Source of the DNA: Gammaproteobacteria bacterium
Lineage (GTDB): Bacteria > Pseudomonadota > Gammaproteobacteria > SZUA-140
Assembly (NCBI GenBank): GCA_016716465.1
Contig: JADJWH010000001.1
Span: forward strand, 685,414 to 749,413
Direction of reading: 5' to 3'
Length of the DNA: 64,000 nucleotides
In this document: piece by piece, positions 12,976 to 60,188 of the stretch
How positions within the stretch are numbered: position 1 is the stretch's first letter
Layout: every line of letters starts with the position of its first letter
Position numbers and translations under genes: made by a program
The notes under the pieces: model-generated
What the model saw: only the letters and a program-made list of their open reading frames with translations
Databases searched by the model: none
Told to the model about the DNA's origin: nothing

Positions 12976-13137
12976 ATTTTCCCCTTGAGCTGTCAGTTCT
13001 GTTGCGTCAGACCGAGTGCCGGGGAGGTATGCGCCGAGACGGACCGGAGAAGCCGGCAGGCACCGTCAGGACATCACACATCCGCGGCCTGTGCCTCCCG
13101 GGCTTTTATCCCGCCGTGTATCCGAGCTCTCCGAACC

Positions 13138-13166
13138 GGGGACAGATTTATTTATCCGATCTGTCC
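13138..13166. repeat. Degenerate REP-like palindrome inside riboswitch 2 (P2-region hairpin)
   Basis: ggggacagatttatttatccgatctgtcc. Confidence 0.5.
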
Positions 13167-13216
13167 GCGTGTCGTGCCGCCCGGACTGCATCCCTTGGAC
13201 CAGCCATCCCTGGGAA

Positions 13217-13241
13217 CGGGGACAGATTTAAAATCTGTCCC
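13217..13241. repeat. 25-bp REP-like palindrome forming the P1a-position hairpin of riboswitch 2
   Basis: ggggacagatttaaaatctgtcccc, directly downstream of CUAGGGUUCCGG on the minus strand. Confidence 0.8.
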
Positions 13242-13600
13242 CGGTACAAGAGACCGGAACCCTAGATGCTCTGAACAGGGTTTAGCAATTAGCATGCCGC
13301 GCCCATGGGCAAGGCCTGTGGCGCGAGCTAACAGATTGACTGTTCTTGCATTCGCCTGTGCGATCTTCACCGTGGCTCGCGCATGACTGAGCCCGCGCGA
13401 CAGTCCGTCGCGAATAATTGCCCCATCATGGTGAGGCGACACTTCGAAATGCGCGGAAATGGTGCCTGATAAGCGAGTCAGGGCCGGGCGCACGGCGCGT
13501 GTTCCGCGGGAATCCGTGCCGGCATTCCATCATCGAACTGTTGGCTATTCCATCACTTAGCCGATGGCACGCATTGTCCCGGTTCATGCCTGGTGCAGGA

Positions 13601-13616
13601 TGGTACGCCGCTTGCA
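13601..13616 (+). promoter_or_regulatory. Sigma-54-type promoter candidate (TGGTAC-N5-TTGCA) driving the gdmH leader
   Basis: GG-N10-GC spacing is exact and the -12 TTGCA is perfect, with one mismatch at -24. The predicted transcription start lies ~40 nt before the aptamer. Confidence 0.35.
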
Positions 13617-13666
13617 ATCTCACAGGGCAAGCGGCCATGGCCGCGATAATCAGCCTATCAGGATGA

Positions 13667-13793
13667 CTAGGGTTCCGGTTCCGCGTGGTACGCGGGGACA
13701 GATGTAAATCCGTCCCCGATGGCGATGCGGGGCGACTGGTCCGAGAGTCATCGGCCTCCGGCGCGGAGGTTACACGGCGGGATAAAAGCCCGG
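13667..13793 (+). promoter_or_regulatory. Guanidine-I (ykkC-type) riboswitch aptamer in the gdmH leader
   Basis: CUAGGGUUCCGG ... GGUCCGAGAG ... ACACGGCGGGAUAAAAGCCCGGGAGAG. All three hallmark ykkC blocks are present in the correct order. Confidence 0.8.
13694..13717. repeat. REP-like palindrome (one arm mismatch) embedded in the P1a-position hairpin of riboswitch 1
   Basis: ggggacagatgtaaatccgtcccc. Confidence 0.6.
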
Positions 13794-13817
13794 GAGAGCA
13801 GGCCTCTCTCGACTTTT
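13794..13817 (+). terminator. Riboswitch expression-platform intrinsic terminator
   Basis: gagagcaggcctctctc followed by gacTTTTGTT. The 5' half overlaps the aptamer 3' end (CCCGGGAGAG), the classic ligand-ON arrangement. Confidence 0.5.
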
Positions 13818-13850
13818 GTTCAACGGTAACCGTTCAGACCAGGAGGACAC

Positions 13851-15044
13851 ATGGCCGATTTTTCCCGATACCGTTCCCGTACGCTGAAACCTTCGCTGCG
13901 CAATCCGGCGCACCGGCACCACCCCTCGTTCGACAAGACCCAGCTGCATGGCTGGAAGGCCGCGCACAAAGAGGCCGAACTGTCACATAGCGGCTGGGAC
14001 GCGGAGGAAAGGCGCTGTCTGGAGCTCGGACTGCCGGGTGCGGACAGCATCCAGGACAAATCGATCCCCACCTTCGCCCGCGGCGAGCTGCCGCACTATG
14101 CGGGCATCAACACCTTCATGAAGGCCCCGTACTGCGAGGACATCAAGGATGTCGGCAAGTACGATGCGGCGATCATCGGCGTGCCGTTCGATGGCGGCAC
14201 CACCTACCGGCCCGGCACGCGCTTCGGGCCACAGGGCATCCGGCGCATCTCGGCGCTGTATACGCCCTATAACTACGAACTCGGCGTCGACCTGCGCGAG
14301 CAGATGACCCTGTGCGATACCGGGGACGTGTTCACGATCCCGGCCAATATCGAGAAGACCTTCGACCAGATCAGTCGCGCGGTCGGTTACGTGTTCGCGA
14401 GCGGGGCGCTGCCGATCATCCTGGGCGGCGACCACTCGATCGGATTCGCCACGGTACGCGGCATCGCGCAGCAGACCGACAAAAAGATCGGCATCATCCA
14501 CTTCGACCGCCACGCCGACATCCAGGAAAAGGATCTCGACGAGCGCATGCACACGACGCCGTGGTTCCATGCCACCAATCTGCCCAACGTGCCGGCGTCC
14601 AATCTGGTGCAGATCGGCATCGGCGGCTGGCAGGTGCCACGCCAGGCGGTGAAGGAGGCGCGCAAGCGCGACACCACGATCATCACGATGAACGACGTGG
14701 AGAAGCTCGGCCTCGACAAGGTGGCGGAGATCGCGCTGGAAACCGCCTGGCACGATGCGGACGCGGTCTATCTGAGCTTCGACATCGACAGCGTGGACGC
14801 CGGCTTCGTGCCGGGCACCGGCTGGCCGGAGCCGGGCGGTTTCCTGCCGCGCGAGATCCTCTATCTATTGGGCATGGTCGCGCGCGAGGGCATCTGCGGC
14901 ATGGAGGTCGTGGAGGTCTCGCCACCCTACGACGTCTCTGACATCACCTCGCTGATGGCGATGCGGGGCATCGTCGACGTGCTCGGCACCCTGGTCGCCC
15001 ACGGCAAGATGGGCGCGCACCGGCACATCATTCGTGGCAGGTGA
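13851..15044 (+). CDS. gdmH: Arginase/agmatinase-family ureohydrolase with a long N-terminal extension; candidate Ni-dependent guanidine hydrolase (GdmH-like)
   Basis: Ureohydrolase motifs GGDHSI, DAHAD-like HFDRHADI, SFDIDSVD. 397 aa. AGGAGG Shine-Dalgarno sequence 5 nt before ATG 13851. Directly downstream of a guanidine-I riboswitch. Confidence 0.75.
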   Translation: MADFSRYRSRTLKPSLRNPAHRHHPSFDKTQLHGWKAAHKEAELSHSGWDAEERRCLELGLPGADSIQDKSIPTFARGELPHYAGINTFMKAPYCEDIKDVGKYDAAIIGVPFDGGTTYRPGTRFGPQGIRRISALYTPYNYELGVDLREQMTLCDTGDVFTIPANIEKTFDQISRAVGYVFASGALPIILGGDHSIGFATVRGIAQQTDKKIGIIHFDRHADIQEKDLDERMHTTPWFHATNLPNVPASNLVQIGIGGWQVPRQAVKEARKRDTTIITMNDVEKLGLDKVAEIALETAWHDADAVYLSFDIDSVDAGFVPGTGWPEPGGFLPREILYLLGMVAREGICGMEVVEVSPPYDVSDITSLMAMRGIVDVLGTLVAHGKMGAHRHIIRGR

Positions 15045-15093
15045 GCGGAGGCATGGCATTGAAACTTGATCAGCCGCGCCGTGGGCGTGCTTC

Positions 15094-15121
15094 GGGGACA
15101 GATTTAATCAAATCTGTCCCC
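15094..15121. repeat. REP-like palindrome (28-bp variant)
   Basis: ggggacagatttaatcaaatctgtcccc, 50 bp past the gdmH stop. Confidence 0.8.
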
Positions 15122-15136
15122 GTTCATGCGCAGATG

Positions 15137-15208
15137 GAGCGCAGCGGAATCCGGGGATCAATTGATTGTTCCCCGGATTCCGGCGCGTTGCGCCTTCATC
15201 CGGGCTAC
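15137..15208. repeat. Inverted pair of CCCGGATTCCG(C/G)...ATCCGGGCTAC hairpin repeats
   Basis: gagcgcagcggaatccgggg, then the atcaattgat palindrome, then ccccggattccggcgcgttgcgccttcatccgggctac. Confidence 0.45.
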
Positions 15209-15446
15209 ATGGATAGCGCGCAGAGTGATCTTATTTAACCCGCCCCTGGATTATGAAATGAGCAGACATAGCCGAATGGGAAGTGATTTTTTTACAGGCC
15301 GCAAACATCTCCACGTTAAAAAACTGCGCCATTCGATGGCATTTGCGCGCGAACGTGATGCGTGATGGTGCGATTTTCTTCACTCAGGCGTTGCATAAAA
15401 ACACGGAAAAATTCTATCTCGCTAATCAATAAAGAAAATATTTTTG

Positions 15447-15461
15447 TGGCACAAAGGATGC
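15447..15461 (+). promoter_or_regulatory. Sigma-54-type promoter candidate (TGGCAC-N5-ATGCT) upstream of the OMP/urt genes
   Basis: TGGCACaaaggATGCT in an AT-rich region ~90 nt upstream of the OMP start. Confidence 0.35.
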
Positions 15462-15551
15462 TATTCCCAGTTCGTACTTTGTTCGAACAAAGCACAGGGT
15501 TGGATCAAGGCAGTTTTATCAACGTGAAATAGGTAGAGGGAGACATAGGAA

Positions 15552-16226
15552 ATGCATACGAAAAAAATCAGTCGTTTGATGCTCGCGGCCAGCCTGGCGG
15601 CCCCCGCCATGGTGTTCATGCCGATGAGCGCGCAGGCCGGCGCGACCGCCAATATCGGCGTTGCCAATATGTATCTGTGGCGCGGCATGGATGTGAGTGC
15701 CTCCGATGCACAGGTGAGCGGCACCCTGCAGTACAACGCCGACAGCGGTTTCTACGTCGGCGGCTGGGCCTCCAGCACCTGGGCCGGCGCAGGATATGAG
15801 CTCGACCTGTATGGTGGTTATGGCGGCAGCGCGGGCGATTTCAAGTACGACATCTCGTTTTGGGAGTACCTGTATCCAGAGGCCGGCTTTGTACCGGGTG
15901 ACGATGTCGGTCTCGGCGACACGGATGCCTCCGACTTGGTGCTGAGCGTCGCCTACGACATGTTCTCGGCCGCCGCCTACGTCAACACGGACAGTGATCT
16001 TCCCGATGCGGTCTATTACACCCTTGGTGTTTCCTCGGGCAAATTCGGCGGTACGTTCGGTTTCTGGACCGGCGATGATGATGCCCTGGACTACAGCCAT
16101 ATCACGCTGAGCTACAACCCGATCGAGTCGCTCACCTTCAAGCTGAGCATGGCTTCCTCGGGCGATACGGAAGTGGAAGAGGATCCCCTGGTCCAGGTTT
16201 CCTATACCTGGGGTTTTGATCTGTAA
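15552..16226 (+). CDS. Small outer-membrane beta-barrel protein (porin-like), possibly a urea/guanidine channel
   Basis: Signal peptide MLAASLAAPAMVFMPMSAQA. Alternating G/Y/S/T-rich strands. C-terminal YTWGFDL. Confidence 0.55.
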   Translation: MHTKKISRLMLAASLAAPAMVFMPMSAQAGATANIGVANMYLWRGMDVSASDAQVSGTLQYNADSGFYVGGWASSTWAGAGYELDLYGGYGGSAGDFKYDISFWEYLYPEAGFVPGDDVGLGDTDASDLVLSVAYDMFSAAAYVNTDSDLPDAVYYTLGVSSGKFGGTFGFWTGDDDALDYSHITLSYNPIESLTFKLSMASSGDTEVEEDPLVQVSYTWGFDL

Positions 16227-16338
16227 GTCATGATGTCGATCCACGCTGTCTAGACTTCGGGGGGCGGGGCCCGCGGGCGCCGTCCCCCGATTCATTTCGT
16301 CATTCACCCGCCATATACAAAAGAAGAGGAAGGGGATC

Positions 16339-17637
16339 ATGAAAAATCACAAATTGCTGAGTTGGAGGAATCTGTTTGGCTCGCTGGCTGCCGTTGCCCT
16401 GACCGCGGGGACCCTGACCGCGCAGGCCGCCGACACGATCAAGGTCGGTGTACTGCATTCGCTGTCCGGCACCATGGCGATCAGCGAGACGACGCTGAAG
16501 GACACGGTCCTGATGCTGGTCGATGAGCAGAACAAGAAGGGCGGCCTGCTCGGCAAGAAGCTCGAGGCGGTGGTGGTCGACCCGGCGTCGAACTGGCCGC
16601 TGTTCGCCGAGAAGGCGCGCGAGCTGATCCAGAAGGACAAGGTCGCGGTGGTGTTCGGCTGCTGGACCTCGGTGTCGCGCAAGTCCGTGCTGCCGGTATT
16701 CGAGGAACTGAACGGACTGCTGTTCTATCCGGTGCAGTATGAAGGCGAGGAGTCCTCCAAGAACGTGTTCTACACCGGCGCGGCGCCCAACCAGCAGGCG
16801 ATCCCGGCGGTGGACTACCTGATGAAGGACATCGGCGTGAAACGCTGGGTGCTGGCCGGCACCGACTATGTGTACCCGCGCACCACCAACAAGATCCTCG
16901 AGGCCTATCTGAAGGCGAAGGGCGTCAAGTCCGAGGACATCATGATCAACTACACGCCGTTCGGCCATTCGGACTGGCAGAGCATCGTGTCCGACATCAA
17001 GAAGTTCGGGTCCGAGGGCAAGAAGACGGCGGTGGTCTCGACCATCAACGGCGACGCCAACGTGCCGTTCTACAAGGAACTCGGCAACCAGGGTATCTCG
17101 GCCGAGGACATCCCGGTCGTGGCATTCTCGGTCGGCGAGGAAGAGCTGTCCGGTCTGGATACCGCCCCGCTGGTCGGGCACCTGGCCGCCTGGAACTACT
17201 TCATGAGCATCGATACGCCGGAAAACGCGGCCTTCATCAAGAAATGGCATGACTTCATCAAGAACCCGAAGCGCGTCACCAACGACCCGATGGAGGCGCA
17301 CGTGATCGGTTTCAACATGTGGGTGAAGGCGGTCGAGAAGGCCGGCACGACGGATACCGACGCGGTTGAGAAGGCGATCATCGGTATCGAGACGCCGAAC
17401 ATGACCGGAGGCATGGCGAAGATGCTGCCCAATCACCACATCACCAAGCCGGTCTTCATCGGTGAGATCCAGGATGACGGCCAGTTCGAGGTGGTCTGGA
17501 AGACCGACGGCCTGGTGCCTGGAGACGCCTGGTCCGACTTCCTGCCCGGCAGCAAGGATATCGAGGCCGACTGGGTGACGCTGAAGTGCGGTAACTACAA
17601 CACCAAGACCAAGAAGTGCTCCGGACAGAATTACTGA
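16339..17637 (+). CDS. urtA: Urea ABC transporter substrate-binding protein
   Basis: 432 aa, Liv-type binding-protein fold: IKVGVLHSLSGTMAISE...VVFGCWTSVSRKSVLPVFEE. Confidence 0.85.
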   Translation: MKNHKLLSWRNLFGSLAAVALTAGTLTAQAADTIKVGVLHSLSGTMAISETTLKDTVLMLVDEQNKKGGLLGKKLEAVVVDPASNWPLFAEKARELIQKDKVAVVFGCWTSVSRKSVLPVFEELNGLLFYPVQYEGEESSKNVFYTGAAPNQQAIPAVDYLMKDIGVKRWVLAGTDYVYPRTTNKILEAYLKAKGVKSEDIMINYTPFGHSDWQSIVSDIKKFGSEGKKTAVVSTINGDANVPFYKELGNQGISAEDIPVVAFSVGEEELSGLDTAPLVGHLAAWNYFMSIDTPENAAFIKKWHDFIKNPKRVTNDPMEAHVIGFNMWVKAVEKAGTTDTDAVEKAIIGIETPNMTGGMAKMLPNHHITKPVFIGEIQDDGQFEVVWKTDGLVPGDAWSDFLPGSKDIEADWVTLKCGNYNTKTKKCSGQNY

Positions 17638-17839
17638 CCGGTGGGGACGCCGGCACCGGGAATACCGGTGCCGGCGCCTCGATTTTCGAACAGTTTTCCA
17701 GATCGGTTGCATGGGCCATCCCCGCGTAGACGGGGGGCGGACACCGGGCGGCCCTGGCCGGGCGCACACCCCCTCAGACGGGGATGACGCAGCGGACGGG
17801 GCGGTTTCTCACCGCAAATTATCGAATTAGGGGCACGGC

Positions 17840-19495
17840 ATGAAGCGATTCTCCGTCGATCCGCGTGTATTGTGCCTGGGCGTGCTGTTGTTGCTGGCCA
17901 CGCTGACGCCGCCTCCGGCGCTGGCGCAGGCCCCGGCGAGTGACGAGGCCCTGAGCGAAGCGGTCGCCGGTTTCACGGCCACCGATTTCGCCGCCAAACA
18001 GTCCGTCGTGGAACGGCTGGCGCAGATGCCGCACCGCCGTACGGTCGTCATTCTGACGGCGATGCTGAATGGCGATCTGTATTATCGCAAGGACGATGAG
18101 CGTGTGGTTATCGCGCAGACCGGCGATGGGGAACTCGCGTTGTTCGATCCCGTCACCGGAGAGGCGCTGGGTGCCGCCGCCAAATCCGACCTCAAGAAGG
18201 TCACGGTCAACAATCCGCTGCGCGGCCTGCTGCGCAACGTCATCGGGCAGTTGAGCCTCTCGAGCCCTGAGCCGGTCGACCGCCTGGCCGCGGTGCGCGA
18301 GATCATGAAGGATCTGTCACCCGACGCGATCGATCAGCTGCGCGCGGCGGAGAGTCGTGAACAGGATTCCCGCGTACTGGAGCAGATCCGTGACGCGCTC
18401 GCACTCGCCGATCTGCAGGGCCAGGATAGGGCGCTGCGTCTGGCCGCCATCGAGCGCCTGGGCGCCAGCCTGGAGCCTGAGGTACGCAATCGCCTGGCGG
18501 TGCTGGCCGAACCGGACGCCGGCGGCAATATCGCCGGGGCCGACGCCGAGTTGCGCCAGGCCGCGCGAGCCGCGCTCGCGCGCATCGACAGCCGCGTGCA
18601 GTTCTATCACCTGCTGGAGACGGTATTCTTCGGCATCAGCCTGGGCTCGGTGCTGCTGCTGGCGGCGATCGGGCTGGCCATCACCTTCGGCGTCATGGGC
18701 GTGATCAACATGGCGCATGGCGAATTGATGATGATCGGCGCCTACACGACCTATGTCGTTCAGCTGCTGATGCCGCAACACATCGACCTGTCGCTGTTCG
18801 TCGCCGTGCCGCTGGCCTTCATCGTGGCAGGCCTGTTCGGGATCCTGATCGAACGCGGGGTGATCCGCTTTCTCTACGGGCGTCCGCTGGAGACCCTGCT
18901 CGCCACCTTCGGTATCAGCCTGGTATTGCAGCAACTGGTGCGTTCGATCTTCTCGCCGCTCAACCGCTCGGTCGCCACGCCATCCTGGATGAGCGGGTCG
19001 CTGGAGATCAACAGCGTGCTCTCGCTGACCTACAACCGGCTGTACATCGTCCTGTTCAGCCTGCTGGTGTTCGCCGCATTGCTGTTGATCCTGAAGAAGA
19101 GCCGGCTTGGCCTGCAGGTGCGCGCGGTGGCCCAGAACCGCGCCATGGCGCGCGCGATGGGCGTGCGCTCGGACTGGGTCGATGCGCTCACCTTCGGGCT
19201 GGGCTCCGGCATCGCCGGCGTCGCCGGGGTCGCGCTCAGCCAGCTCACCAATGTCGGTCCCAATCTCGGCCAGGCGTACATCATCGACTCCTTCATGGTG
19301 GTGGTGTTCGGCGGGGTGGGCAATCTGTGGGGAACCCTGGTCGGCGCGCTCTCGCTCGGCGTCGTGAACAAGTTCCTCGAGCCCTGGTCGGGCGCGGTGC
19401 TGGCCAAGATCTTCGTGCTGGTGGCGATCATCCTGTTCATCCAGAAGCGCCCGCGCGGACTCTTCCCGCAGAAGGGCCGGGCGGCGGAGGACTGA
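17840..19495 (+). CDS. urtB: Urea ABC transporter permease UrtB with a ~260-aa N-terminal periplasmic extension
   Basis: Signal peptide plus a HEAT-like, Ala/Leu-rich N-terminal domain, then the LivH-type permease core (GVINMAHGELMMIGAY). Confidence 0.8.
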   Translation: MKRFSVDPRVLCLGVLLLLATLTPPPALAQAPASDEALSEAVAGFTATDFAAKQSVVERLAQMPHRRTVVILTAMLNGDLYYRKDDERVVIAQTGDGELALFDPVTGEALGAAAKSDLKKVTVNNPLRGLLRNVIGQLSLSSPEPVDRLAAVREIMKDLSPDAIDQLRAAESREQDSRVLEQIRDALALADLQGQDRALRLAAIERLGASLEPEVRNRLAVLAEPDAGGNIAGADAELRQAARAALARIDSRVQFYHLLETVFFGISLGSVLLLAAIGLAITFGVMGVINMAHGELMMIGAYTTYVVQLLMPQHIDLSLFVAVPLAFIVAGLFGILIERGVIRFLYGRPLETLLATFGISLVLQQLVRSIFSPLNRSVATPSWMSGSLEINSVLSLTYNRLYIVLFSLLVFAALLLILKKSRLGLQVRAVAQNRAMARAMGVRSDWVDALTFGLGSGIAGVAGVALSQLTNVGPNLGQAYIIDSFMVVVFGGVGNLWGTLVGALSLGVVNKFLEPWSGAVLAKIFVLVAIILFIQKRPRGLFPQKGRAAED

Positions 19496-19498
19496 GCC

Positions 19499-20629
19499 AT
19501 GCTGTCACGCGGACTCGTACGCAGCCTGCTCGAAAGCGATCGCGGCGGACAGATATTCCTGCTCATCCTGGCCGCCGTCGCGGTGGCGATCCCGGTGGCC
19601 AACCTGCTGATCCCGGAGGGCTCGCCGCTGCATCTCTCCGCCTACACGGTCACGCTGTTCGGGAAATACCTGTGCTATGCGCTGCTGGCGCTGGCGCTCG
19701 ACCTGATCTGGGGCTATTGCGGCATCCTGAGCCTGGGGCACGGCGCCTTCTTCGCCCTGGGCGGCTACGCCATGGGCATGTACCTGATGCGCCAGATCGG
19801 CGACCGCGGCGTGTACGGCGATCCGGTGCTGCCGGATTTCATGGTGTTCCTCAACTGGCAGGAACTGCCGTGGTACTGGTTCGGCTTCGACCAGTTCTGG
19901 TTCGCGCTGGCCATGATCGTGCTGGTGCCGGGCCTGCTGGCCTTCGTGTTCGGCTGGTTCGCCTTCCGGTCGCGGGTCACCGGCGTCTATCTGTCGATCA
20001 TCACCCAGGCGCTGACCTTCGCGCTGATGCTCGCCTTCTTCCGCAACGACATGGGCTTCGGCGGCAACAACGGCCTGACCGACTTCAAGGACATCCTCGG
20101 CTTCAATCTCCAGTCGGACGCGACCCGCGTGGTCCTGTTCCTGGCCTCGGCGCTGGCGCTCGCGGCCGGTTATCTGGCCTGCCGCTATATCGTGAACTCC
20201 AAGCTTGGGCGCGTGGTGGTGGCGGTGCGCGACGCCGAAAGCCGCGCGCGCTTCATCGGTTACCGGGTCGAGCACTACAAGCTGTGGGTATTCGTGTTCT
20301 CGGCGATACTGGCGGGCATCGCGGGCGCGCTCTACGTGCCGCAGGTCGGCATCATCAACCCGAGCGAATTCTCGCCGCTGAACTCGATCGAACTGGTGGT
20401 GTGGGTCGCCGTTGGCGGGCGCGGCACGCTCTATGGGGCGGTGCTCGGCGCCGTGCTGGTGAATTACGCTAAGACCTGGTTCACCACCGAGTTCCCGGAG
20501 GTGTGGCTGTTCGCGCTCGGCGGCCTGTTCGTGTTGGTGACCATCCTGATGCCGCGCGGGATCGTCGGCCTGTTCGCGAAGCTGCGCGGCGGAAAAGGCG
20601 CGGTGCGCAAGGCGAAGGAGGCGACATGA
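19499..20629 (+). CDS. urtC: Urea ABC transporter permease
   Basis: LivM-type permease: ILSLGHGAFFALGGYAMGMYLM. Confidence 0.85.
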   Translation: MLSRGLVRSLLESDRGGQIFLLILAAVAVAIPVANLLIPEGSPLHLSAYTVTLFGKYLCYALLALALDLIWGYCGILSLGHGAFFALGGYAMGMYLMRQIGDRGVYGDPVLPDFMVFLNWQELPWYWFGFDQFWFALAMIVLVPGLLAFVFGWFAFRSRVTGVYLSIITQALTFALMLAFFRNDMGFGGNNGLTDFKDILGFNLQSDATRVVLFLASALALAAGYLACRYIVNSKLGRVVVAVRDAESRARFIGYRVEHYKLWVFVFSAILAGIAGALYVPQVGIINPSEFSPLNSIELVVWVAVGGRGTLYGAVLGAVLVNYAKTWFTTEFPEVWLFALGGLFVLVTILMPRGIVGLFAKLRGGKGAVRKAKEAT

Positions 20630-21438
20630 GCGTCGGACCCGACGCGATGGACGGCGATGGCATGGCGCACGCCACCCCCGAGGATGCGGTGGATACCAGC
20701 CACGGCCCGATTCTGTACCTGGAGAACGTCTCCGTCAGCTTCGACGGGTTCAAGGCGCTGAACGAGCTGACGCTGTACGTCGACGACGGCGAGCTGCGCT
20801 GTATCATCGGCCCCAACGGCGCCGGCAAGACGACGATGATGGACGTCATCACCGGCAAGACGCGGCCGGATTCGGGTACGGTGTTCTTTGGCCAGACGCT
20901 CGATCTGACCCGGATGTCAGAGCCTGATATCGCGAGCGCCGGCATCGGGCGCAAGTTCCAGAAGCCGACCATCTTCCCCGCCCATACCGTGTTCGAGAAC
21001 CTGGAACTCGCCATGCAGGCCGACAAGCGCGTCTGGGCCTCGCTGTGGGCGCGCCTCTCCGCCGAGCAGCGTGACCGCATCGAGGAGGTGCTGGCGCTGA
21101 TCGGGCTCAAGGACCAGCGCGGCCTGCGCGCCCAGTCGCTGTCGCACGGCCAGAAGCAGTGGCTGGAGATCGGCATGCTGCTGATGCAGAACCCGCGCCT
21201 GCTGCTGGTGGACGAGCCGGTGGCGGGCATGACGCACCAGGAGATGGACCGCACCGCTGAACTGCTGACCGGACTGGCCGGGCGCCACTCGGTGGTCGTG
21301 GTCGAGCACGACATGGACTTCGTGCGCTCCATCGCGCGCAAGGTCACCGTGCTGCACGAAGGCCGCGTGCTCGCCGAGGGCGGCATGGACCAGGTGCAGA
21401 ACGATCCCCGCGTCATCGAAGTCTATCTGGGGGCCTGA
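20626..21438 (+). CDS. urtD: Urea ABC transporter ATP-binding protein
   Basis: GPNGAGKTTMMDVITGKTRPDSG...LSHGQKQWLEIGMLL; ATGA overlap with the urtC stop. Confidence 0.85.
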   Translation: MSVGPDAMDGDGMAHATPEDAVDTSHGPILYLENVSVSFDGFKALNELTLYVDDGELRCIIGPNGAGKTTMMDVITGKTRPDSGTVFFGQTLDLTRMSEPDIASAGIGRKFQKPTIFPAHTVFENLELAMQADKRVWASLWARLSAEQRDRIEEVLALIGLKDQRGLRAQSLSHGQKQWLEIGMLLMQNPRLLLVDEPVAGMTHQEMDRTAELLTGLAGRHSVVVVEHDMDFVRSIARKVTVLHEGRVLAEGGMDQVQNDPRVIEVYLGA

Positions 21439-21439
21439 C

Positions 21440-22138
21440 ATGCTGGAGATACGCGCGCTCAACCAGTTCTACGGTGAGAGCCATACCCTGTGGGACGTCG
21501 ATCTCAGCCTGCCGCAAGGCGGCTGCCTGTGCCTGATGGGGCGCAACGGCGTCGGCAAGACGACCCTGCTGCGCTCCATCATGGGCCTGCAGGCCATCGC
21601 CTCCGGGACCCTCCGTTTCGACGGCCAGGACCTGCATGCACGCGCCGCCGAGGGGCGCGCGCCGCTCGGCATCGGCTACGTCCCGCAGGGACGCGAGATC
21701 TTCCCGCTGCTGACAGTGGAGGAGAACCTGCGCATCGGCCTGCCGGCGCGGCGCGACGGCAACCGGCGCGATATCCCGGAGCGCATCTTCGACCTGTTCC
21801 CGGTGCTGAAGCAGATGCTGAGGCGGCGGGGCGGTGATCTCTCCGGCGGCCAGCAGCAACAGCTTGCGATCGGCCGCGCGCTCGTCCTGGAACCCACGCT
21901 GCTGATCCTGGACGAACCCACGGAAGGTATCCAGCCCAATATCGTGCAGGAGATCGGCGACATCATCCGCCGCCTGAACGAGGAACAGAACCTCAGCATC
22001 CTGCTGGTCGAACAGAAACTCCCGTTCGCGCGCCGCGTGGCGAAGGAGTTCTGCCTGATGGATCGGGGGAGGGTGGTGGCGACAGGGGATATTGGGCAGC
22101 TCAGTGAGGGATTGATCGATCAGTATTTGAAGGTATAG
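21440..22138 (+). CDS. urtE: Urea ABC transporter ATP-binding protein
   Basis: GRNGVGKTTLLRSIMGL...LSGGQQQQLAIGRALV. Confidence 0.85.
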   Translation: MLEIRALNQFYGESHTLWDVDLSLPQGGCLCLMGRNGVGKTTLLRSIMGLQAIASGTLRFDGQDLHARAAEGRAPLGIGYVPQGREIFPLLTVEENLRIGLPARRDGNRRDIPERIFDLFPVLKQMLRRRGGDLSGGQQQQLAIGRALVLEPTLLILDEPTEGIQPNIVQEIGDIIRRLNEEQNLSILLVEQKLPFARRVAKEFCLMDRGRVVATGDIGQLSEGLIDQYLKV

Positions 22139-22227
22139 TCCGTAGGTTGGGCAGAGCAACGCGAAGCCCAACAATTTTCAATCCTAGTCATGTTGGGTTT
22201 CATTCCATTCAATCCAACCTATGGATA

Positions 22228-22713
22228 CTAGCCACGCACTACCAGCCATGCGATAAGTAAAGGTAAACCATACAGTACCGATGCGATGAAATAACCTGAT
22301 ACGGAACCCCTAAATCTACGCGTGGTTATTATCTCTTTCCATTCCTCTTCGGAGTAGAGAGACTCGTGAAACACGGTCAATATTAAGTGGTAAATTCGGT
22401 ACGCAGAATATACTGACAACGCAGACATTGCCACTAATAGCGCTAGACCAAAACCCAACGCTCCATCGATGGCCGAGAAGATCTGGTACCCAATTGCAAA
22501 TAGTATGAAAGGAATAATATTTATTACAATGATCGAGATAAACAAACGTGCTAATAGACGCTGCTGTTCTTTTCGCTCAGGTTCTTGCCACAGGCCCCAT
22601 GGAAATGCTCGAAATGAACTCATGCCCGATAGCAACGCACCATACAAAACTGCGTAAAACACAGAGAAAAGTGTTTGGGCCTCAGTCATCTTTTGTGACA
22701 CTGGGCATAACAA
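22228..22713 (-). CDS. Hypothetical small polytopic membrane protein encoded on a low-GC insert
   Basis: 161 aa with 4 predicted TM helices. The surrounding 22140-22860 is ~42% GC against ~65% elsewhere. Confidence 0.45.
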   Translation of the reverse strand: MLCPVSQKMTEAQTLFSVFYAVLYGALLSGMSSFRAFPWGLWQEPERKEQQRLLARLFISIIVINIIPFILFAIGYQIFSAIDGALGFGLALLVAMSALSVYSAYRIYHLILTVFHESLYSEEEWKEIITTRRFRGSVSGYFIASVLYGLPLLIAWLVVRG

Positions 22714-22855
22714 GAATTCATGATCAAAAATGATATATAAACCGGGCTACACGACGTATAGTATCGCAGCTCCATCAATAATTCGTTGTGTGGCATGGTA
22801 GCGACTGTGAGAAGCGCATCGGCGAAATCCGCTAACACAACAAACATCGAACCAG

Positions 22856-23677
22856 CTATTTATCTCGCAACAGTTCGTTGATCCCCACCTTAGACCGCGT
22901 CTTCTCGTCCACCTGCTTGATGATAACGGCGCAGTACAGGCTGTGGCTGCCGTCCTTGGCGGGCAGGCTGCCGGGGACGACGACGGCGCCGGGCGGCACC
23001 TTGCCGTAGACGACCTCGCCGGTCAGGCGGTTGTAGATCTTGGTGCTCTGGCCGATGTAGACGCCCATCGAGATCACCGCGCCCTCGCCGACGATGACGC
23101 CCTCGACGACTTCGGAGCGCGCGCCGATGAAGCAGTTGTCCTCGATGATGGTCGGGCTGGCCTGCACCGGTTCCAGCACGCCGCCGATGCCGACGCCGCC
23201 GGACAGGTGCACGTTCTTGCCGATCTGGGCGCAGGAGCCGACGGTGGCCCAGGTGTCGACCATGGTGCCGCTGTCGACGTAGGCGCCGATGTTGACGTAA
23301 GAGGGCATCAGCACGACGCCGGAGGCGATGTAGGCGCCCTTGCGCGCGCTCGCCGGCGGCACCACGCGCACGCCGGCGTCACGGAATTCGCGCGGGTTGT
23401 AGGCGGCATACTTGGGCTGCACCTTGTCGTAGTAGTTGGTGAAGCCGCCCTTCATGAAGCTGTTGTCCTCGATGCGGAACGACAGCAGCACGGCCTTCTT
23501 CAGCCACTGGTTGACGACCCATTCGCCGCCCTGCTTCTCGGCGACGCGCAGCTTGCCCTGGTCGAGCAGGTCGATCACCGTGTTGACCGCCTCCTTGACG
23601 TGGGTCTCCACGCTGCGCGGGGTGATGTCGGCGCGGCGCTCGAAGGCTTCATCGATGATGCGTTGCAGGTCGTTCAT
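22856..23677 (-). CDS. dapD: 2,3,4,5-tetrahydropyridine-2,6-dicarboxylate N-succinyltransferase
   Basis: [20 protein letters not shown]...hexapeptide repeats. The longer ORF reaching 23716 reads through the REP element; the GGAGA Shine-Dalgarno sequence supports the ATG at 23677. Confidence 0.9.
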
Positions 23678-23701
23678 GGTGCATTCTCCGTATCTGCTGA
23701 A

Positions 23702-23727
23702 GGGGACAGATTTCAAAATCTGTCCCC
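23702..23727. repeat. 25-bp REP-like palindrome
   Basis: ggggacagatttcaaaatctgtcccc. Confidence 0.8.
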
Positions 23728-23743
23728 GGGGGTTACCCGGGGG

Positions 23744-24940
23744 TTACGTTCGTTCAATGTAGTTTCGGATCCGCCATGCCGCCTCCATGCAGTCCTCCAG
23801 CGGCGGCACCAGGGCCATGCGCACGCGGCCGCGGCCCGGGTCGATGCCATGGGCGGGGCGCGACAGGTAGCTGCCCGGCAGCACGGTGACATTTTCCGCC
23901 GCGAACAGGCCACGCGCAAATTCCGCGTCATCACCCGGTGTCTGCGGCCACAGATAGAAGCTGGCGGGCGGGCGCTGAACCTCGAGCACCGGCGTGAGGA
24001 TCTCCAGCACGGCGTCGAATTTCGCGCGGTACAGCGCGCGGTTCCGGATCACGTGTTCCTCGTCGCCCCAGGCCTTCAGACTCGCGGCCTGCGTGTGCGG
24101 CGGCATCGCGCTGCCGTGGTAGGTGCGGTAACGATGGAAGGCCTCGATGATCGCGGCGTCGCCGGCGACGAAGCCCGAGCGCAGGCCCGGCACGTTCGAA
24201 CGCTTCGACAGGCTCTGGAAGATGATGCAGCGCTTGTATTCGGTGTTGCCCAGCGCGGCGGCGGCCGCGAGCAGGCCGGGCGGCGGATCGAGTTCATCGT
24301 CGTACAGCTCCGAGTAGCATTCGTCAGCGGCGATGATGAAATCGAAGCGCTCCGCGAGCTCCAGCACCGCGCGCATCCCGTTCAGGCCGATCACCGCGCC
24401 GGAGGGATTGCCGGGCGAACAGAGATAGAGCAACTGGCAGCGTTGCCAGGCCTCGGCCGGGACCGAGGCGAAATCGGGCAGCCAGTGCGTTTCGGCAGTG
24501 GTGTTGATATACCAGGGCTCCGCGCCGGCGAGCAGGGCGGCGCCCTCGTAGATCTGATAGAACGGATTGGGCATCATGACCCGCGGCGAGCGCGCGCGAT
24601 CGACCACCGTCTGCGCGATGGCGAACAACGCCTCGCGCGTGCCGTTCACCGGCAGGATATGGCGCTCCGGGTCGAGGCTCGCGGCGGGCAGGCCGTAGCG
24701 CCGCTGCAGCCAGCGCGCGATCGCCGCGCGCAGCTCCGCCGTCCCGCGCGTCAGCGGATACTGTTCGAGGCCGTGCAGGTGGGTAATGAGTTCCTCGGCG
24801 ATGAAGCCGGGCGGCGGGTGTTTGGGTTCGCCCATGGCCAGGCTGAGCACGGATTTATCCGCTGCCGGCTGTACCCCATGCTTGAGGCGAGCCAGCCGCT
24901 CGAACGGGTAGGGTTGCAATCGGGCGAGATCAGGATTCAT
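23744..24940 (-). CDS. dapC: Succinyldiaminopimelate transaminase (class I aminotransferase)
   Basis: MNPDLARLQPYPFERL...SLSKRSNVPGLRSGF. Confidence 0.85.
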   Translation of the reverse strand: MNPDLARLQPYPFERLARLKHGVQPAADKSVLSLAMGEPKHPPPGFIAEELITHLHGLEQYPLTRGTAELRAAIARWLQRRYGLPAASLDPERHILPVNGTREALFAIAQTVVDRARSPRVMMPNPFYQIYEGAALLAGAEPWYINTTAETHWLPDFASVPAEAWQRCQLLYLCSPGNPSGAVIGLNGMRAVLELAERFDFIIAADECYSELYDDELDPPPGLLAAAAALGNTEYKRCIIFQSLSKRSNVPGLRSGFVAGDAAIIEAFHRYRTYHGSAMPPHTQAASLKAWGDEEHVIRNRALYRAKFDAVLEILTPVLEVQRPPASFYLWPQTPGDDAEFARGLFAAENVTVLPGSYLSRPAHGIDPGRGRVRMALVPPLEDCMEAAWRIRNYIERT

Positions 24941-25021
24941 GTAATTTAATTTATGAAGTTATAGCTGTAACCATATAAAGAAATTAAAATTCAGTCGATT
25001 TATTATGGCCGAGTTAAAAAT

Positions 25022-25095
25022 GGGGACAGATTTAATTTTTGCTCGGGATTCCGCATTTTACACGGGGCACATCTTCAAAAATAAAATCTGTCCCC
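25022..25095. repeat. 74-bp long-loop variant of the REP-like element (the same terminal inverted arms around a ~45-bp core)
   Basis: aaatggggacagatttaatttttg...caaaaataaaatctgtccccattt. Confidence 0.7.
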
Positions 25096-26294: not shown

Positions 26295-26319
26295 GGGGAC
26301 AGATTTGAAATCTGTCCCC
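26295..26319. repeat. 25-bp REP-like palindrome
   Basis: ggggacagatttgaaatctgtcccc, preceded by the short direct repeat g(c/t)gg(t/c)cttgagcgggga. Confidence 0.8.
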
Positions 26320-28947: not shown

Positions 28948-29071
28948 GGGGACAGATTTATTTTTAACGGAATGCTCTCAAAAAAATGGCAGGAAATGGG
29001 GACAGATTTAATTTTTGACCGGAGACTGTTCACTGAACGGAGGTCATCTCACAAAGATAAAATCTGTCCCC
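28948..29071. repeat. Nested cluster of REP-like elements: a partial left arm with core (28948-28997) plus a complete 74-bp long-loop copy (28998-29071)
   Basis: Two aaatggggacagattta left arms and one aaaatctgtccccatttt right arm. The core is ~60% identical to the 25022 copy. Confidence 0.7.
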
Positions 29072-55557: not shown

Positions 55558-56640
55558 ATGTCCGACGAAGACCTGCTGAAAACCATCCGCGCCCGCATCG
55601 ATCAGATCGACGGGAAGCTGCAGGAGCTGATCACCGAGCGGGCGCGATGCGCGCTCGAGGTGGCGCGGCTCAAGCATGCCTCCGGCGATATGGATTACTA
55701 TCGGCCGGAGCGCGAGGCGCAGGTGCTGCAGACGGTGCTCGGTCGCAACCAGGGGCCGCTCGACGACGAAGTGGTGGTGCGCCTGTTCCGCGAGATCATG
55801 TCTGCCTGCCTGGCGCTGCAGCGCCCGATCGCCGTGGCCTATCTCGGACCGGAAGGCACCTTCACCGAGGCCGCGGTATTCAAGCATTTTGGCCAGGCGG
55901 TGAGCGCGCGCCCGCTGGCCGCCATCGACGAGGTCTTCCGCGACGTCGAAGCAGGCGCCGTGGATTACGGTGTGGTTCCGATCGAAAACTCCTCCGAGGG
56001 GGCGGTCGATCACACGCTCGACATGTTCATGAGTTCTCCGCTGAAGATCTGCAGCGAGATCGAGTTGCGTATTCATCACAATCTGATGGGCAAGGCGGAC
56101 GCGACGGGCGGGATCAATCGTGTCTATGCGCACCAGATGGCCCTGGCGCAGTGCCGCGAATGGCTCAACGCGCACCTCTCCGGCGTCGAATGCATCCCGG
56201 TCAGCAGCAACGCCGAGGCCGCGCGTCGGGCGCAGGAGGAAGCGGGCGCGGCCGCGATCGCCGGCACCAACGCGGCCGCCATCTACGGCCTGGAGATTCT
56301 CTCGTCCAATATCGAGGACAAGCCGGACAACACGACCCGCTTCCTGGTGATCGGTCGCAAAATCCCCGCGCCGAGCGGACGCGACAAGACTTCCCTGCTG
56401 GTCTCCACGTCCAACAAGCCCGGCGCGCTTTATCGCCTGCTGAAACCCCTGGCTGAACACGGGATTTCCATGAGCCGTATCGAATCGCGGCCTTCCCGGC
56501 GCGAGATGTGGGAATATGTCTTTTTCATCGACATCGAGGGCCATGCCCAGGACGAGAAGGTGGCGGCGGTCATCCGGATCCTGGAAAATGAGGCGGCTGT
56601 GCTCAAGGTGCTGGGTTCGTACCCCTGCGCCGTGTTGTAG
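55558..56640 (+). CDS. pheA: Bifunctional chorismate mutase / prephenate dehydratase
   Basis: MSDEDLLKTIRARIDQIDGKLQELI (chorismate mutase domain)...prephenate dehydratase domain...ACT domain. Confidence 0.9.
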   Translation: MSDEDLLKTIRARIDQIDGKLQELITERARCALEVARLKHASGDMDYYRPEREAQVLQTVLGRNQGPLDDEVVVRLFREIMSACLALQRPIAVAYLGPEGTFTEAAVFKHFGQAVSARPLAAIDEVFRDVEAGAVDYGVVPIENSSEGAVDHTLDMFMSSPLKICSEIELRIHHNLMGKADATGGINRVYAHQMALAQCREWLNAHLSGVECIPVSSNAEAARRAQEEAGAAAIAGTNAAAIYGLEILSSNIEDKPDNTTRFLVIGRKIPAPSGRDKTSLLVSTSNKPGALYRLLKPLAEHGISMSRIESRPSRREMWEYVFFIDIEGHAQDEKVAAVIRILENEAAVLKVLGSYPCAVL

Positions 56641-56710
56641 GGGACGGACTGAAGTCCGTCCCCATGAACGCTCATAAACTGAGTCGGGGACGGATTTGAG
56701 ATCCGTCCCC
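56640..56710. repeat. Two REP-like palindromes carrying compensatory arm substitutions (GGGGACGGA...TCCGTCCCC)
   Basis: ggggacggactgaagtccgtcccc and ggggacggatttgagatccgtcccc. An A-to-G change in the left arm is matched by a T-to-C change in the right arm. Confidence 0.75.
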
Positions 56711-58778: not shown

Positions 58779-60188
58779 ATGACGACTAAAGAACATATCT
58801 TCGACATCACCCCCGGCGGCCGCCTGAGCGGTGAAATCCGCGTTCCCGGCGACAAGTCGATTTCGCACCGCTCCATCATGTTCGGCTCGCTGGCCGAGGG
58901 AGTCACCGAGGTGGAGGGGTTCCTGGAGGGTGAGGACAGCCTGGCGACACTGGCGGCGTTCCGCCGCATGGGTGTCGCCATCGACGGGCCGGCACAGGGG
59001 CGGGTCACCATTCGCGGCGCAGGCATGCGCGGGCTGAGTGCGCCCGACGGCCCGCTCGATCTGGGCAATTCCGGGACCTCGATGCGCCTGATGGCCGGGC
59101 TGTTGTCCGCGCAGTCCTTCGATACTGAACTGACCGGCGACGCCTCGCTGTCGCGCCGGCCGATGCGCCGGGTGACACAACCGCTGGCATCGATGGGCGC
59201 GCGTATCGAGACGGAGGCCGCGGGCACGCCGCCGCTGCGCATTCGCGGCGGATCGCCGCTGCGCGGCATACGCTACGACATGCCGGTCGCAAGCGCCCAG
59301 GTCAAATCCGCGCTGCTGCTGGCCGGGCTCTATGCCGACGGCGAGACCTGCGTGACCGAGCCCGCGCCCACGCGCGATCACACCGAACGCATGCTGACCG
59401 CCTTCGGTTATCTGGTCACGCGCCACCACAACACCGTCTGCGTGAAGGGCGGAGGGCGGCTCAATCCGACCCGCATTGCGATCCCGGCGGATATTTCCTC
59501 GGCGGCGTTCTTCCTGGTCGGAGCCGCGATTGCGCCGGGGTCCGACGCGACGCTGACCGATGTCGGCATCAATCCGACGCGCATCGGCGTGATCAACATC
59601 CTGCAGCAGATGGGCGCGCGCATCGATATCCTCAACAAGCGCATGTTCGGCGGCGAACCGGTGGCCGACCTGCGCGTGCGCGCGGGCATGCTCAAGGGCA
59701 TCGACATCCCGATCGAGCAGGTCCCGCTGGCGATCGATGAATTTCCCGCACTCTTCATCGCCGCGGCCTGCGCCGAAGGCCGGACGGTGCTGACCGGCGC
59801 GGAGGAACTGCGCGTCAAGGAAAGCGACCGCATCCAGGTCATGGCCGACGGCCTGCGGCGGCTGGGCGTCATGGCCGAGCCGACGCCGGACGGGATTGTC
59901 ATCGAAGGGAAGGGCGTAGCCGGTGCCAAGGGGACAGATTTAAAATCTGTCCCCAATGGCGCAACTTCTGTCCCCGAACATCAGGCGGTATTTTCCGGTG
60001 GTGAGGTCGAGAGCCACGGCGATCACCGCATCGCGATGGCCTTCGCGGTGGCCGGCTTTCGTGCCGCAGGCCCGATTCGCATCCGCGACTGCAAGAATGT
60101 GGATACCTCGTTCCCGGGGTTCGTGGGACTGGCGCGGAAATCCGGATTAAAAATCAAAACACAGGACTTAGGACTCGGGACTGAGTGA
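58779..60188 (+). CDS. aroA: 3-phosphoshikimate 1-carboxyvinyltransferase (EPSP synthase) carrying an in-frame ~24-aa repeat-derived insertion
   Basis: ITPGGRLSGEIRVPGDKSISHRSIMFGSLA...SHGDHRIAMAF. The insertion KGTDLKSVPNGATSVP is encoded by a REP copy. The last 8 codons and the stop are encoded by a heptamer array. Confidence 0.9.
   Translation: MTTKEHIFDITPGGRLSGEIRVPGDKSISHRSIMFGSLAEGVTEVEGFLEGEDSLATLAAFRRMGVAIDGPAQGRVTIRGAGMRGLSAPDGPLDLGNSGTSMRLMAGLLSAQSFDTELTGDASLSRRPMRRVTQPLASMGARIETEAAGTPPLRIRGGSPLRGIRYDMPVASAQVKSALLLAGLYADGETCVTEPAPTRDHTERMLTAFGYLVTRHHNTVCVKGGGRLNPTRIAIPADISSAAFFLVGAAIAPGSDATLTDVGINPTRIGVINILQQMGARIDILNKRMFGGEPVADLRVRAGMLKGIDIPIEQVPLAIDEFPALFIAAACAEGRTVLTGAEELRVKESDRIQVMADGLRRLGVMAEPTPDGIVIEGKGVAGAKGTDLKSVPNGATSVPEHQAVFSGGEVESHGDHRIAMAFAVAGFRAAGPIRIRDCKNVDTSFPGFVGLARKSGLKIKTQDLGLGTE
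59930..59975. repeat. REP-like palindrome plus a duplicated right arm, inserted in-frame within aroA
   Basis: ggggacagatttaaaatctgtcccc aatggcgcaa cttctgtcccc. Confidence 0.8.
60162..60187. repeat. GGACTNA heptamer array encoding the aroA C-terminus and stop
   Basis: caggacttaggactcgggactgagtga reads Q D L G L G T E stop. Confidence 0.6.

Follow-up and report, generated by a model that had tools for sequence, protein, structure and literature searches.

The aroA locus and its palindromic insert

The DNA considered here is a stretch of 64,000 nucleotides from a member of the Gammaproteobacteria (GTDB lineage SZUA-140; contig JADJWH010000001.1 of assembly GCA_016716465.1, positions 685,414 to 749,413 of the forward strand), referred to below as the window, and the element of interest is a short palindromic repeat lying in frame within aroA, the gene for 5-enolpyruvylshikimate-3-phosphate (EPSP) synthase. 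The relevant features of this gene, with positions counted from the first letter of the window, are the following.

58779–60188, plus strand: aroA, class II-type EPSP synthase, 469 amino acids (phmmer, PF00275, AlphaFold, superposition on 5buf)
59913–59990, plus strand: expanded loop, residues 379–404, a coil between strands 372–378 and 408–411 in the AlphaFold model
59930–59954, plus strand: core of the repeat, a perfect 25-nt palindrome (GGGGACAGATTTAAAATCTGTCCCC) with 12-bp arms around a central A, GGGGACAGATTT-A-AAATCTGTCCCC
59955–59975, plus strand: 21-nt secondary unit, spacer AATGGCGCAACT plus extra right arm TCTGTCCCC, encoding N393 G A T S V P399
60012–60038, plus strand: SHGDHRIAM active-site motif, residues 412–420, directly 3′ of the loop, with S412–M420 invariant in the homologue alignment

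The aroA reading frame opens with an ATG at 58779, and its product is 100% identical to P0001, a database protein of a gammaproteobacterial metagenome-assembled genome (MAG). The open reading frame (ORF) matches the AroA proteins of A. baumannii (5buf, E 1.8e-172) and Coxiella (3tr1, E 4.5e-149) in phmmer, PF00275 is found on all AroA homologues, and assignment to class II of the EPSP synthases is based on a match in both full-length sequence and fold together with conservation of the D-H-R motif.

The coding sequence around the insert reads GCC AAG GGG ACA GAT TTA AAA TCT GTC CCC AAT GGC GCA ACT TCT GTC CCC GAA CAT, and the translation of the long ORF across it is ...AKGTDLKSVPNGATSVPEHQAVFSGGEVESHGDHRIAMAF... 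The palindrome itself encodes G385 T D L K S V P392, and the second right arm (59967–59975) lies in the same plus-strand frame. The 25-nt core is not a multiple of 3; together with the secondary unit, the stretch recognisably derived from the repeat amounts to 46 nt, or about 15 residues (385–399). Its foreign character is apparent from an identity of 25/25 with the intergenic copy at 13218–13242, and from codons that are rare in the remainder of the gene (TTA, 1% of Leu; TCT, 2% of Ser; ACA, 7% of Thr codons). A palindrome of this kind is easily read through, five of the six frames being free of stops when the centre is G or C, and four of six in the A/T-centred form found in aroA. The initial annotation of this DNA had placed a palindromic repeat in frame within aroA just upstream of the SHGDHRIAM motif, and both statements hold: the octapeptide GTDLKSVP ends 20 residues before the motif, while the intergenic match and the rare codons are joined by orthologues with a short loop and a monophyletic set of carriers, as detailed below.

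Orthologue loops and the history of the insertion

Loop length was defined as the number of residues between the anchors DGxxI and SHGDHR. So measured, the loop has 11–12 residues in 99 of 116 homologous proteins and at 54 of 65 genomic loci of other Gammaproteobacteria, against 36 in the window, and long loops (22–36 residues) with GTDLKSVP-like peptides are limited to the ten or eleven closest relatives, at 83–95% identity. Relatives recovered by a genome scan for aroA loci were all at 69% identity or below and did not belong to this group. Against the solved structures, 17 window residues are left without a partner in 5buf, as are residues 380–404 in 3tr1. The aroA DNA of nine close relatives, each taken from an independent assembly (NCBI, ENA, JGI and Logan), was then set beside that of the window to give a clade of ten members, across all of which the gene is, as judged from its sequence, intact and conserved. 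The string GGG ACA GAT TTA AAA TCT GTC CCC, or a near variant, matches the window in codon position and frame in eight of the nine relatives, and thus in nine of ten clade members when the window is counted; in P0007 only the right arm remains. The residues flanking the clade copies are likewise shared (GKG...AK / VF.GGE). In a neighbour-joining tree (432 ungapped columns, 100 bootstraps) insert carriers are monophyletic in 100/100 replicates, while the sister lineages P0013, P0014 and P0017 have a plain short loop without the insert. Among the clade members compared, none has an empty, short-loop allele.

Because the copies share site and frame, belong to one clade flanked by short-loop sisters, contrast with the loops of other orthologues and consist of foreign codons, the most parsimonious reading is that the aroA copy goes back to one old in-frame insertion in the ancestor of this clade of uncultured gammaproteobacteria. 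A 29-residue loop of the form GKGGxxAK-GTDLKSVP-ExxAVFSGGE is present in both subclades, and was probably the ancestral inserted state. The additional AAT GGC GCA ACT TCT GTC CCC (21 nt, NGATSVP) is confined to the window and P0002 (95% identity) and would represent a later, local gain in that lineage. In P0005, P0006, P0008 and P0010 the hairpin remains, but codons next to it are gone from one flank or from both. The duplicated right arm had earlier been taken for an insertion footprint. Its restriction to window and P0002 means that it is not the footprint of the original event, and the same layout recurs in unrelated copies of the repeat that show no target-site duplication. The earlier figure of about 24 added residues is correct as the total excess of the loop over the modal orthologue, but only the 15 residues 385–399 are demonstrably derived from the repeat.

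Longer loops without any palindrome do occur in distant orthologues (5buf, GKGKSGDWSPIFAGGEIE; P0066, QGKGNSEGQAVFSGGEVE; and L073), some in a similar frame, and could suggest that the loop is native and no more than similar to the repeat, or else an artefact of assembly. However, these loops share with the window no more than the GKG...VF.GG frame and have no GTDLKSVP/ATSVP core, and neither notion is compatible with a 25/25 match to an intergenic copy, with the rare codons, with restriction of the insert to a single clade, or with recovery of the insert in ten independent assemblies. This explanation is effectively refuted.

Two of the homologues have peculiarities of their own. P0066 (750 aa) is a tyrA-aroA fusion (PF02153, PF20463, PF00275), whose native loop resembles the part of the window loop that is not repeat. 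P0012, an AroA homologue of 500 aa, contains an internal tandem duplication of about 60 residues over MASAQVKS (alignment columns 164–223), which is either real or an assembly error.

Structural setting of the insert

An AlphaFold model of the window AroA, built on a 70-sequence alignment, is of high confidence overall (predicted local distance difference test, pLDDT, 92.1; predicted template modelling score, pTM, 0.90) and superposes on 5buf with TM-scores of 0.91/0.96 and a root-mean-square deviation of 1.7 Å (Foldseek). The loop between the two strands is the exception, with mean pLDDT values of 49 for residues 381–390 and 59 for residues 391–400. The insert is thus predicted to occupy a disordered surface loop of an otherwise normal EPSP synthase fold, its exposure to solvent being deduced from low pLDDT and the absence of secondary structure. 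The loop is variable in length across the EPSP synthase family, and it adjoins the active-site motif without being within it. Such a setting would make the insert a tolerated passenger rather than an adaptation of the enzyme, its survival explained by its being in frame, free of stops and placed in a disordered loop. An essential enzyme that is the target of glyphosate is seen to accommodate a repeat-encoded loop of 15–25 residues beside its active-site motif, which marks a permissive site for loop engineering and is a caution for annotation and alignment pipelines.

The repeat family in the window

The palindrome in aroA is one copy of a repeat dispersed through the genome, similar in type to repetitive extragenic palindromic (REP) sequences and made of the 12-nt arms GGGGACAGATTT and AAATCTGTCCCC around a centre of 1–2 nt. 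Four loci in the window match the 25-mer with at most 3 mismatches (0.00 expected from 100 shuffles), the 9-nt arm occurs 22 times (0.48 expected), and a looser scan finds 12 full hairpins. The aroA copy is intragenic, two others fall within riboswitch aptamers, and the rest are intergenic, mostly just past stop codons. Apart from aroA, the family members are as follows; no strand is assigned to the palindromes themselves.

5811–5836: family copy between ureE/F and ureG
9011–9035: family copy between convergent DUF748 and peptidase M16 genes
13138–13168: degenerate copy in a terminal loop of the minus-strand guanidine-I riboswitch
13218–13242: copy identical to that of aroA, in a terminal loop of the minus-strand guanidine-I riboswitch
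13694–13717: degenerate copy in a terminal loop of the plus-strand guanidine-I riboswitch
15094–15121: family copy 50 nt past the stop codon of an arginase-family gene
23702–23727: family copy just past the stop codon of an aminotransferase gene (minus strand)
25022–25095: long-loop member of 74 nt that shares the 12-nt arms, located in a divergent intergenic region (−35.7 kcal/mol)
26295–26319: family copy between an EamA-family gene and pyrG
28948–29071: solo left arm (28948) and 74-nt long-loop member (28998–29071, −41.3 kcal/mol), after kdsA
56640–56710: two hairpins of the ACGG..CCGT subfamily (56640–56663 and 56686–56710), directly past the pheA stop codon

The two 74-nt members have similar AT-rich subterminal parts, diverged centres and ends that are inverted over about 20 nt; only the window has yielded the long form, which is absent from the metagenome and viral loci examined. 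The pheA-adjacent hairpins have orthologous copies in relatives (L081:7757 and 7794, L082:7616, L093:6329), so that these intergenic copies are as old as the aroA copy, and among the relatives changes are paired on both arms (GGAC/GTCC versus GGAT/ATCC).

The guanidine-I aptamers (RF00442; 13093–13276 on the minus strand and 13656–13798 on the plus strand, 70.6 and 84.9 bits) face outward, one toward a gene for an NMT1-like binding protein and the other toward the arginase-family gene. Three of their terminal loops have been expanded, from 3 to 42, 3 to 35 and 4 to 49 nt, each by a copy of the repeat, and both aptamers still score above the Rfam gathering threshold. There is no Rfam family for the repeat itself, matches in the window being confined to guanidine-I (twice) and 5_ureB_sRNA. 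The latter (RF02514, 2912–3198, minus strand, 111.9 bits) is full length and lies antisense within the urease gene region.

A role as intrinsic terminator was considered for the family copies and rejected. Across 5000–24999, which holds seven of them, no family copy was called as a terminator, and a T-tail is missing from the short copies. Downstream of the aroA copy the sequence continues with AATGGC, and downstream of the 74-nt members, which lie outside the stretch scanned for terminators, with ATTTT.

In-frame copies in other genes

Insertion within coding sequence is not peculiar to aroA. Genes with in-frame copies whose products were confirmed by Pfam include those for SMC, RecC, cytochrome b, an HdrA-like protein, GATase/SIS proteins, a Pyr_redox_2 oxidoreductase and a phage head protease; a further copy, in a CheB-CheR-PAS protein, lies upstream of the first domain matched by Pfam, in a part of the ORF for which it is doubtful where the true start codon lies. 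The palindrome is read in all three frames, giving GDRF[EQK]ICP, GQISNLSP and GTD[LF]KSVP. The GlmS-like GATase/SIS genes at L204:108–1931 (plus strand) and L113:9744–13673 (minus strand) contain several copies in one frame, four of them in L204, and have in common a 46-nt unit of arm, spacer and hairpin, GGGGACAGATTTCGCCGTGCGGGGGACAGATTTGAAATCTGTCCCC.

SMC and cytochrome b offer filled and empty alleles for comparison. In the Syntrophales-like SMC genes (L125:4421–8023, minus strand; L229:3001–6576, plus strand; L230:184–3792, plus strand; L193:7878–11678, minus strand) the palindrome is present in some and absent from others of alleles that are 94–96% identical. In most relatives at 94% identity the site is empty and reads GSGRPGLSRELF, L125 and P0121 have GDRF[EK]ICP in its place, an extra left-arm unit is added in P0122 and P0125, and the extra unit in the L230 gene repeats its own flank in inverted form (CACGG..CCGTG). 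At the DNA level filled and empty SMC alleles differ by a net +15 nt with remodelled flanks. The cytochrome b gene at L188:6260–7378 (plus strand), on a deltaproteobacterial contig of 43% G+C, encodes LGTDLKSVPTE at about residue 240, just past the N-terminal domain. The insert is carried by P0241 and P0243, whereas a short IEGxE stands there in P0242 and in over 30 further orthologues, the net change being +6 residues (+18 nt), again with remodelled flanks. Insertion is thus imprecise, with only the in-frame outcomes surviving within genes.

Hosts, phage and architecture of the copies

Beyond the window, the exact palindrome was found in at least 120 metagenome stretches, on contigs of 38% to 70% G+C with unrelated flanks, and in fifteen viral stretches. 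Hosts, named through close homologues or identical proteins, include Thioalkalivibrio (L106, L126), Desulfobulbaceae/Desulfobacterales (L210), Syntrophales (L125) and other 'Deltaproteobacteria' MAGs (L197, L188), so the same 24 specified bases are common to Gammaproteobacteria, several orders of Desulfobacterota and a phage. The tailed-phage contig IMGVR_UViG_3300033489_000011 (54 kb; L216, L217, L223), with genes for a portal protein, a head protease and decoration and major head proteins, carries the palindrome at least 12 times, in two cases inside the head-protease ORF. At L145:48–132, where a 1.2-kb contig begins, the repeat stands between inverted flanks of 30 nt in a perfect palindrome of 85 nt. 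This probably reflects a fold-back in assembly; it was not used as evidence, and cautions that the repeat may induce chimeric contig ends.

Among 175 distinct copies, 22% have flanks that prolong the palindrome by 3 nt or more (1.6% expected); the flank consensus is rich in A to the left and in T to the right, and for about a quarter of the copies another arm lies no more than 40 nt away. In many unrelated copies hairpin, spacer and extra arm form a unit of 43–50 nt, of exactly 46 nt in aroA, L113, L174, L189 and L201, the extra part often being a 5′-truncated second copy. Fully symmetric nested forms are found in L131, L189 and L204, and tandem pairs also occur.

Direct repeats flank the 175 copies at k=3 in 1.7% of cases against 1.6% expected (13.7% against 6.3% at k=2), so that no target-site duplication is seen. 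The GTAG and CGTC tags of REP sequences each occur in one of 180 copies. When the ORFs in 877 kb of repeat-bearing loci (136 sources) were clustered and recurrent clusters searched against Pfam, no recurrent transposase-like ORF emerged, the recurrent clusters near the repeat being common families only (ABC transporters, histidine kinases, sigma-54 activators and an aminotransferase). Nor is there a gene for a REP-associated tyrosine transposase (RAYT) in the window. About one RAYT is expected per several hundred repeat copies.

These results bear on the possibility that the repeat is a minimal MITE (a transposable element of the miniature inverted-repeat type) of a DDE-type insertion sequence, with the arms as its terminal inverted repeats and the extra aroA arm as a footprint of excision or insertion. 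The arms are indeed perfect inverted repeats, the two members of 74 nt (25022 and 28998) with their inverted ends of about 20 nt look MITE-like, and the A-rich left and T-rich right flanks would suit such an element. Against this stand the lack of target-site duplications and of any transposase recurring in the 877 kb of repeat-bearing loci, the remodelled flanks and net changes of the SMC (+15 nt) and cytochrome b (+18 nt) genes, and the extra arm of aroA, which is younger than the insertion. DDE synaptic complexes require two transposase-bound ends, for which a 25-nt element is too short. A DDE-type MITE therefore fits poorly, and we consider this origin very improbable.

Maintenance of the hairpin sequence

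As RNA, the 25-mer folds with −17.2 kcal/mol (z −5.5), and with −24.7 kcal/mol when its flanks GCCA/UGGC are included. Within the clade the hairpin is far better preserved than the loop codons on either side: pairwise nucleotide identity is 0.86, compared with 0.52 upstream and 0.66 downstream, and amino-acid identity is 0.82, compared with 0.32 and 0.42. Its codons, too, are kept more often than the same codons elsewhere in aroA.

GGG: kept in the hairpin 8/8; elsewhere in aroA 0.51
GAT: kept in the hairpin 8/8; elsewhere in aroA 0.52
AAA: kept in the hairpin 7/7; elsewhere in aroA 0.25
CCC: kept in the hairpin 8/8; elsewhere in aroA 0.62
ACA: kept in the hairpin 5/7; elsewhere in aroA 0.12

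Overall about 49 of 56 hairpin codons are kept, where about 24 would be expected. Pairing is also reflected family-wide in covariation of position 7 with its partner (ACAG..CTGT in 180 copies, ACGG..CCGT in 8, mixed in 2). The hairpin nucleotides thus seem to be held more tightly than constraint at the protein level alone explains, and the most likely cause would be self-correction of the palindrome, or short-patch conversion from the many other copies. One apparent case of compensatory selection on the stem, the ACA>ACG / TCT>TCC pair in P0006, was down-weighted, since one-sided versions exist in P0004, P0009 and P0010 and ACGG..CCGT is an existing subfamily variant; both changes are, besides, synonymous AT>GC changes at third positions.

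The same preservation could signify that the hairpin or its octapeptide has been co-opted, either as an mRNA structure (for ribosome pausing, transcript protection or factor binding) or as a loop that affects the behaviour of the enzyme. The identity contrast with the adjacent codons, the retention of rare codons well above the aroA background, the stability of the RNA hairpin, and the pairing kept through two-arm changes by the orthologous copies next to pheA all point that way. Yet stems have decayed to 8–11 of 12 pairs in most lineages and the hairpin has been lost in P0007, with the gene intact. A specific role for the peptide is hard to reconcile with a palindrome read in all three frames of unrelated proteins and, in aroA, with predicted disorder (pLDDT 49–59). 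Conversion from other copies, moreover, accounts for the same data, and co-option strikes us as unlikely.

Mechanism of insertion and spread

Taken together, these observations make it likely that a copy of a REP-like repeat was inserted in frame into an ancestral aroA and has been carried since as a tolerated passenger, its hairpin kept by correction or conversion, and that the family spreads by a process acting in trans. On this account one copy would have entered aroA in the ancestor of the clade, landing between the two β-strands that precede SHGDHRIAM. The loop would then have been remodelled around the retained hairpin, with 21 nt gained in the lineage of window and P0002, flanking codons lost in others and the left arm lost in P0007; the 21-nt second unit may stem from the same hairpin-associated process that yields extra arms elsewhere. 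The means of spread is the least certain step. It may be a trans-acting process on DNA hairpins, extruded or single-stranded, that leaves imprecise junctions and is not a clean cut-and-paste reaction, candidate routes being a RAYT-like HUH single-strand transposase whose junctions are relaxed, or template switching as DNA is replicated or repaired. A process acting on hairpins is suggested because copies have no tag and no target duplication, net length is variable, flanks are palindromic, insertions sit at stem tips, and the one readable empty site shows microhomology.

Several findings weigh against this account. No empty aroA allele close enough to fix the junctions was found among the orthologues. 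The original insert would have had 17–18 residues if the ancestor had the modal loop, and fewer if the ancestral loop, as may be the case, was already 16–18 residues long like that of P0066 or 5buf. As regards maintenance, the hairpin identity of 0.86 equals that of typical 8-codon windows of aroA (0.85) and shows no excess conservation by this yardstick, the rare-codon statistic ignores the shared ancestry of the relatives, and stems with 1–3 mismatches in most clade members indicate that the hairpin is not strictly maintained; its constraint could be ordinary purifying selection on a peptide that gained a role. A mobilising enzyme was not identified in the 877 kb of repeat-bearing loci. Finally, the filled SMC allele is found also in a non-sister lineage of only 76% identity, and the distribution in cytochrome b is patchy, P0243 (69% identity) being filled and P0242 (78%) empty, which makes recurrent insertion or recombination possible and leaves one old event in aroA as no more than the most economical interpretation.

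This last pattern raises the question of whether the aroA site is itself a hotspot, hit or re-converted repeatedly, so that the clade copies are in part independent or have been refreshed from other copies. In SMC the distant filled allele coexists with empty alleles in relatives at 94%, and the empty site, GGGTCTTTCCC, resembles the collapsed ends of an element; in aroA, the ACGG..CCGT pair of the P0006 hairpin is a subfamily variant that occurs elsewhere in the genomes of relatives. The aroA copies, however, lie at exactly one codon and in one frame, share the flanks described above and have no empty counterpart within the clade, and the loop variants map sensibly onto the tree. Recurrence at aroA is accordingly rated quite unlikely, and a single ancestral insertion is retained as the preferred explanation.

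A bolder proposition concerns the family as a whole, namely that it is an undescribed, untagged 25-nt element, currently active and crossing phyla, which spreads by hairpin-templated replication or repair, or by an unknown enzyme that is neither RAYT nor DDE transposase. In its favour are the 24 specified bases shared by Thioalkalivibrio and other Gammaproteobacteria, Syntrophales, Desulfobacterales and a tailed phage, the presence or absence of the palindrome among SMC alleles of 94–96% identity, its placement at tips of existing hairpins and in protein loops, its nesting in itself, and imprecise junctions that resemble template switching. We hold this to be a minority prospect, doubtful as it stands.

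Comparison with known systems

The nearest relatives in kind are the REP sequences and their doublets, the REPINs. Intragenic REPs with GTAG/CGTC tags have been reported in bacteria that include Opitutus, Thauera and Thioalkalivibrio, recBCD and uvr genes being frequent sites (Di Nocera et al. 2013, PMC3733652); some REP families are shared by distant organisms, and untagged families exist (PMC3733652). The present family is REP-like in its unit of 20–40 nt, whose stem foot is rich in G+C and which is present many times in a genome, in the placement of most copies past stop codons and between convergent genes, and in its occasional in-frame genic copies, including one in RecC, where the survey just cited lists recBCD-type genes. 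Forms in which units are paired or nested into larger hairpins may recall REPIN doublets, an analogy that is loose, the basic unit here being already a complete palindrome. The differences are substantial. The GTAG/CGTC tag by which REPs are recognised is absent (one in 180 copies for each), the unit is a perfect 12+12 palindrome with a 1-nt centre instead of an imperfect stem with an unpaired tag, no RAYT was seen in the window or in the repeat-bearing loci examined, the same 24 bases recur identically across Gammaproteobacteria, Desulfobacterota orders and a phage, and junctions are imprecise. If this were simply an old REP family whose RAYT went undetected, the finding would be ordinary.

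Among MITEs, bacterial elements known to extend or interrupt reading frames include Correia/NEMIS, Nezha and ERIC (PMC3184786, PMC10969869). The repeat shares with them its non-autonomous nature, terminal inverted repeats and capacity to be co-translated, and the 74-nt window members resemble small MITEs. Unlike them, it shows no target-site duplication and no parent insertion sequence was found in the loci searched, and its 25-nt core is far below the 70–300 bp range given for MITEs in PMC3733652.

Quasi-palindrome template-switch mutagenesis is fold-back copying of the Ripley type. The repeat resembles it in flanks that become extensions of the palindrome, in paired changes on two arms and in the inverted flank copy CACGG..CCGTG in the SMC gene of L230; the mechanism explains the correction and growth of a copy, but not its arrival at a distant site.

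A close parallel for the aroA event is found in the Rickettsia palindromic elements (RPEs), which the summary of Ogata et al. (2000) in PMC3733652 presents as palindromic repeats in frame within Rickettsia genes. The initial annotation had drawn this likeness, and as a type of event it is sound. In both cases an in-frame palindrome occupies a permissive place in a gene that stays functional and is inherited by related species, with orthologues that have no such segment (aroA, SMC and cytochrome b here). RPE-1 elements are about 100–150 bp long and confined to Rickettsia. The element described here has 25 nt, or 46 nt with its second unit, and is set apart by size, by host and apparently by sequence; its hosts are free-living, both G+C-rich and G+C-poor, and belong to two phyla. 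The aroA element thus works like an RPE and is not a member of that group.

The in-frame insertion of a palindrome is, then, an already known kind of event, while the repeat family behind the aroA insert is probably undescribed: neither the repeat DNA nor its encoded peptides were found described in the searchable literature, the scope of which excludes subscription journals. As an object of study the family is unusually clean, a tiny and exactly conserved unit with recent activity in essential genes, of which near-identical strains have filled and empty alleles, and with copies at riboswitch stem tips, copies in phage and a host range of two phyla. Given complete genomes, it could reveal how REP-like hairpins, those of untagged REPs in particular, move and stay palindromic.

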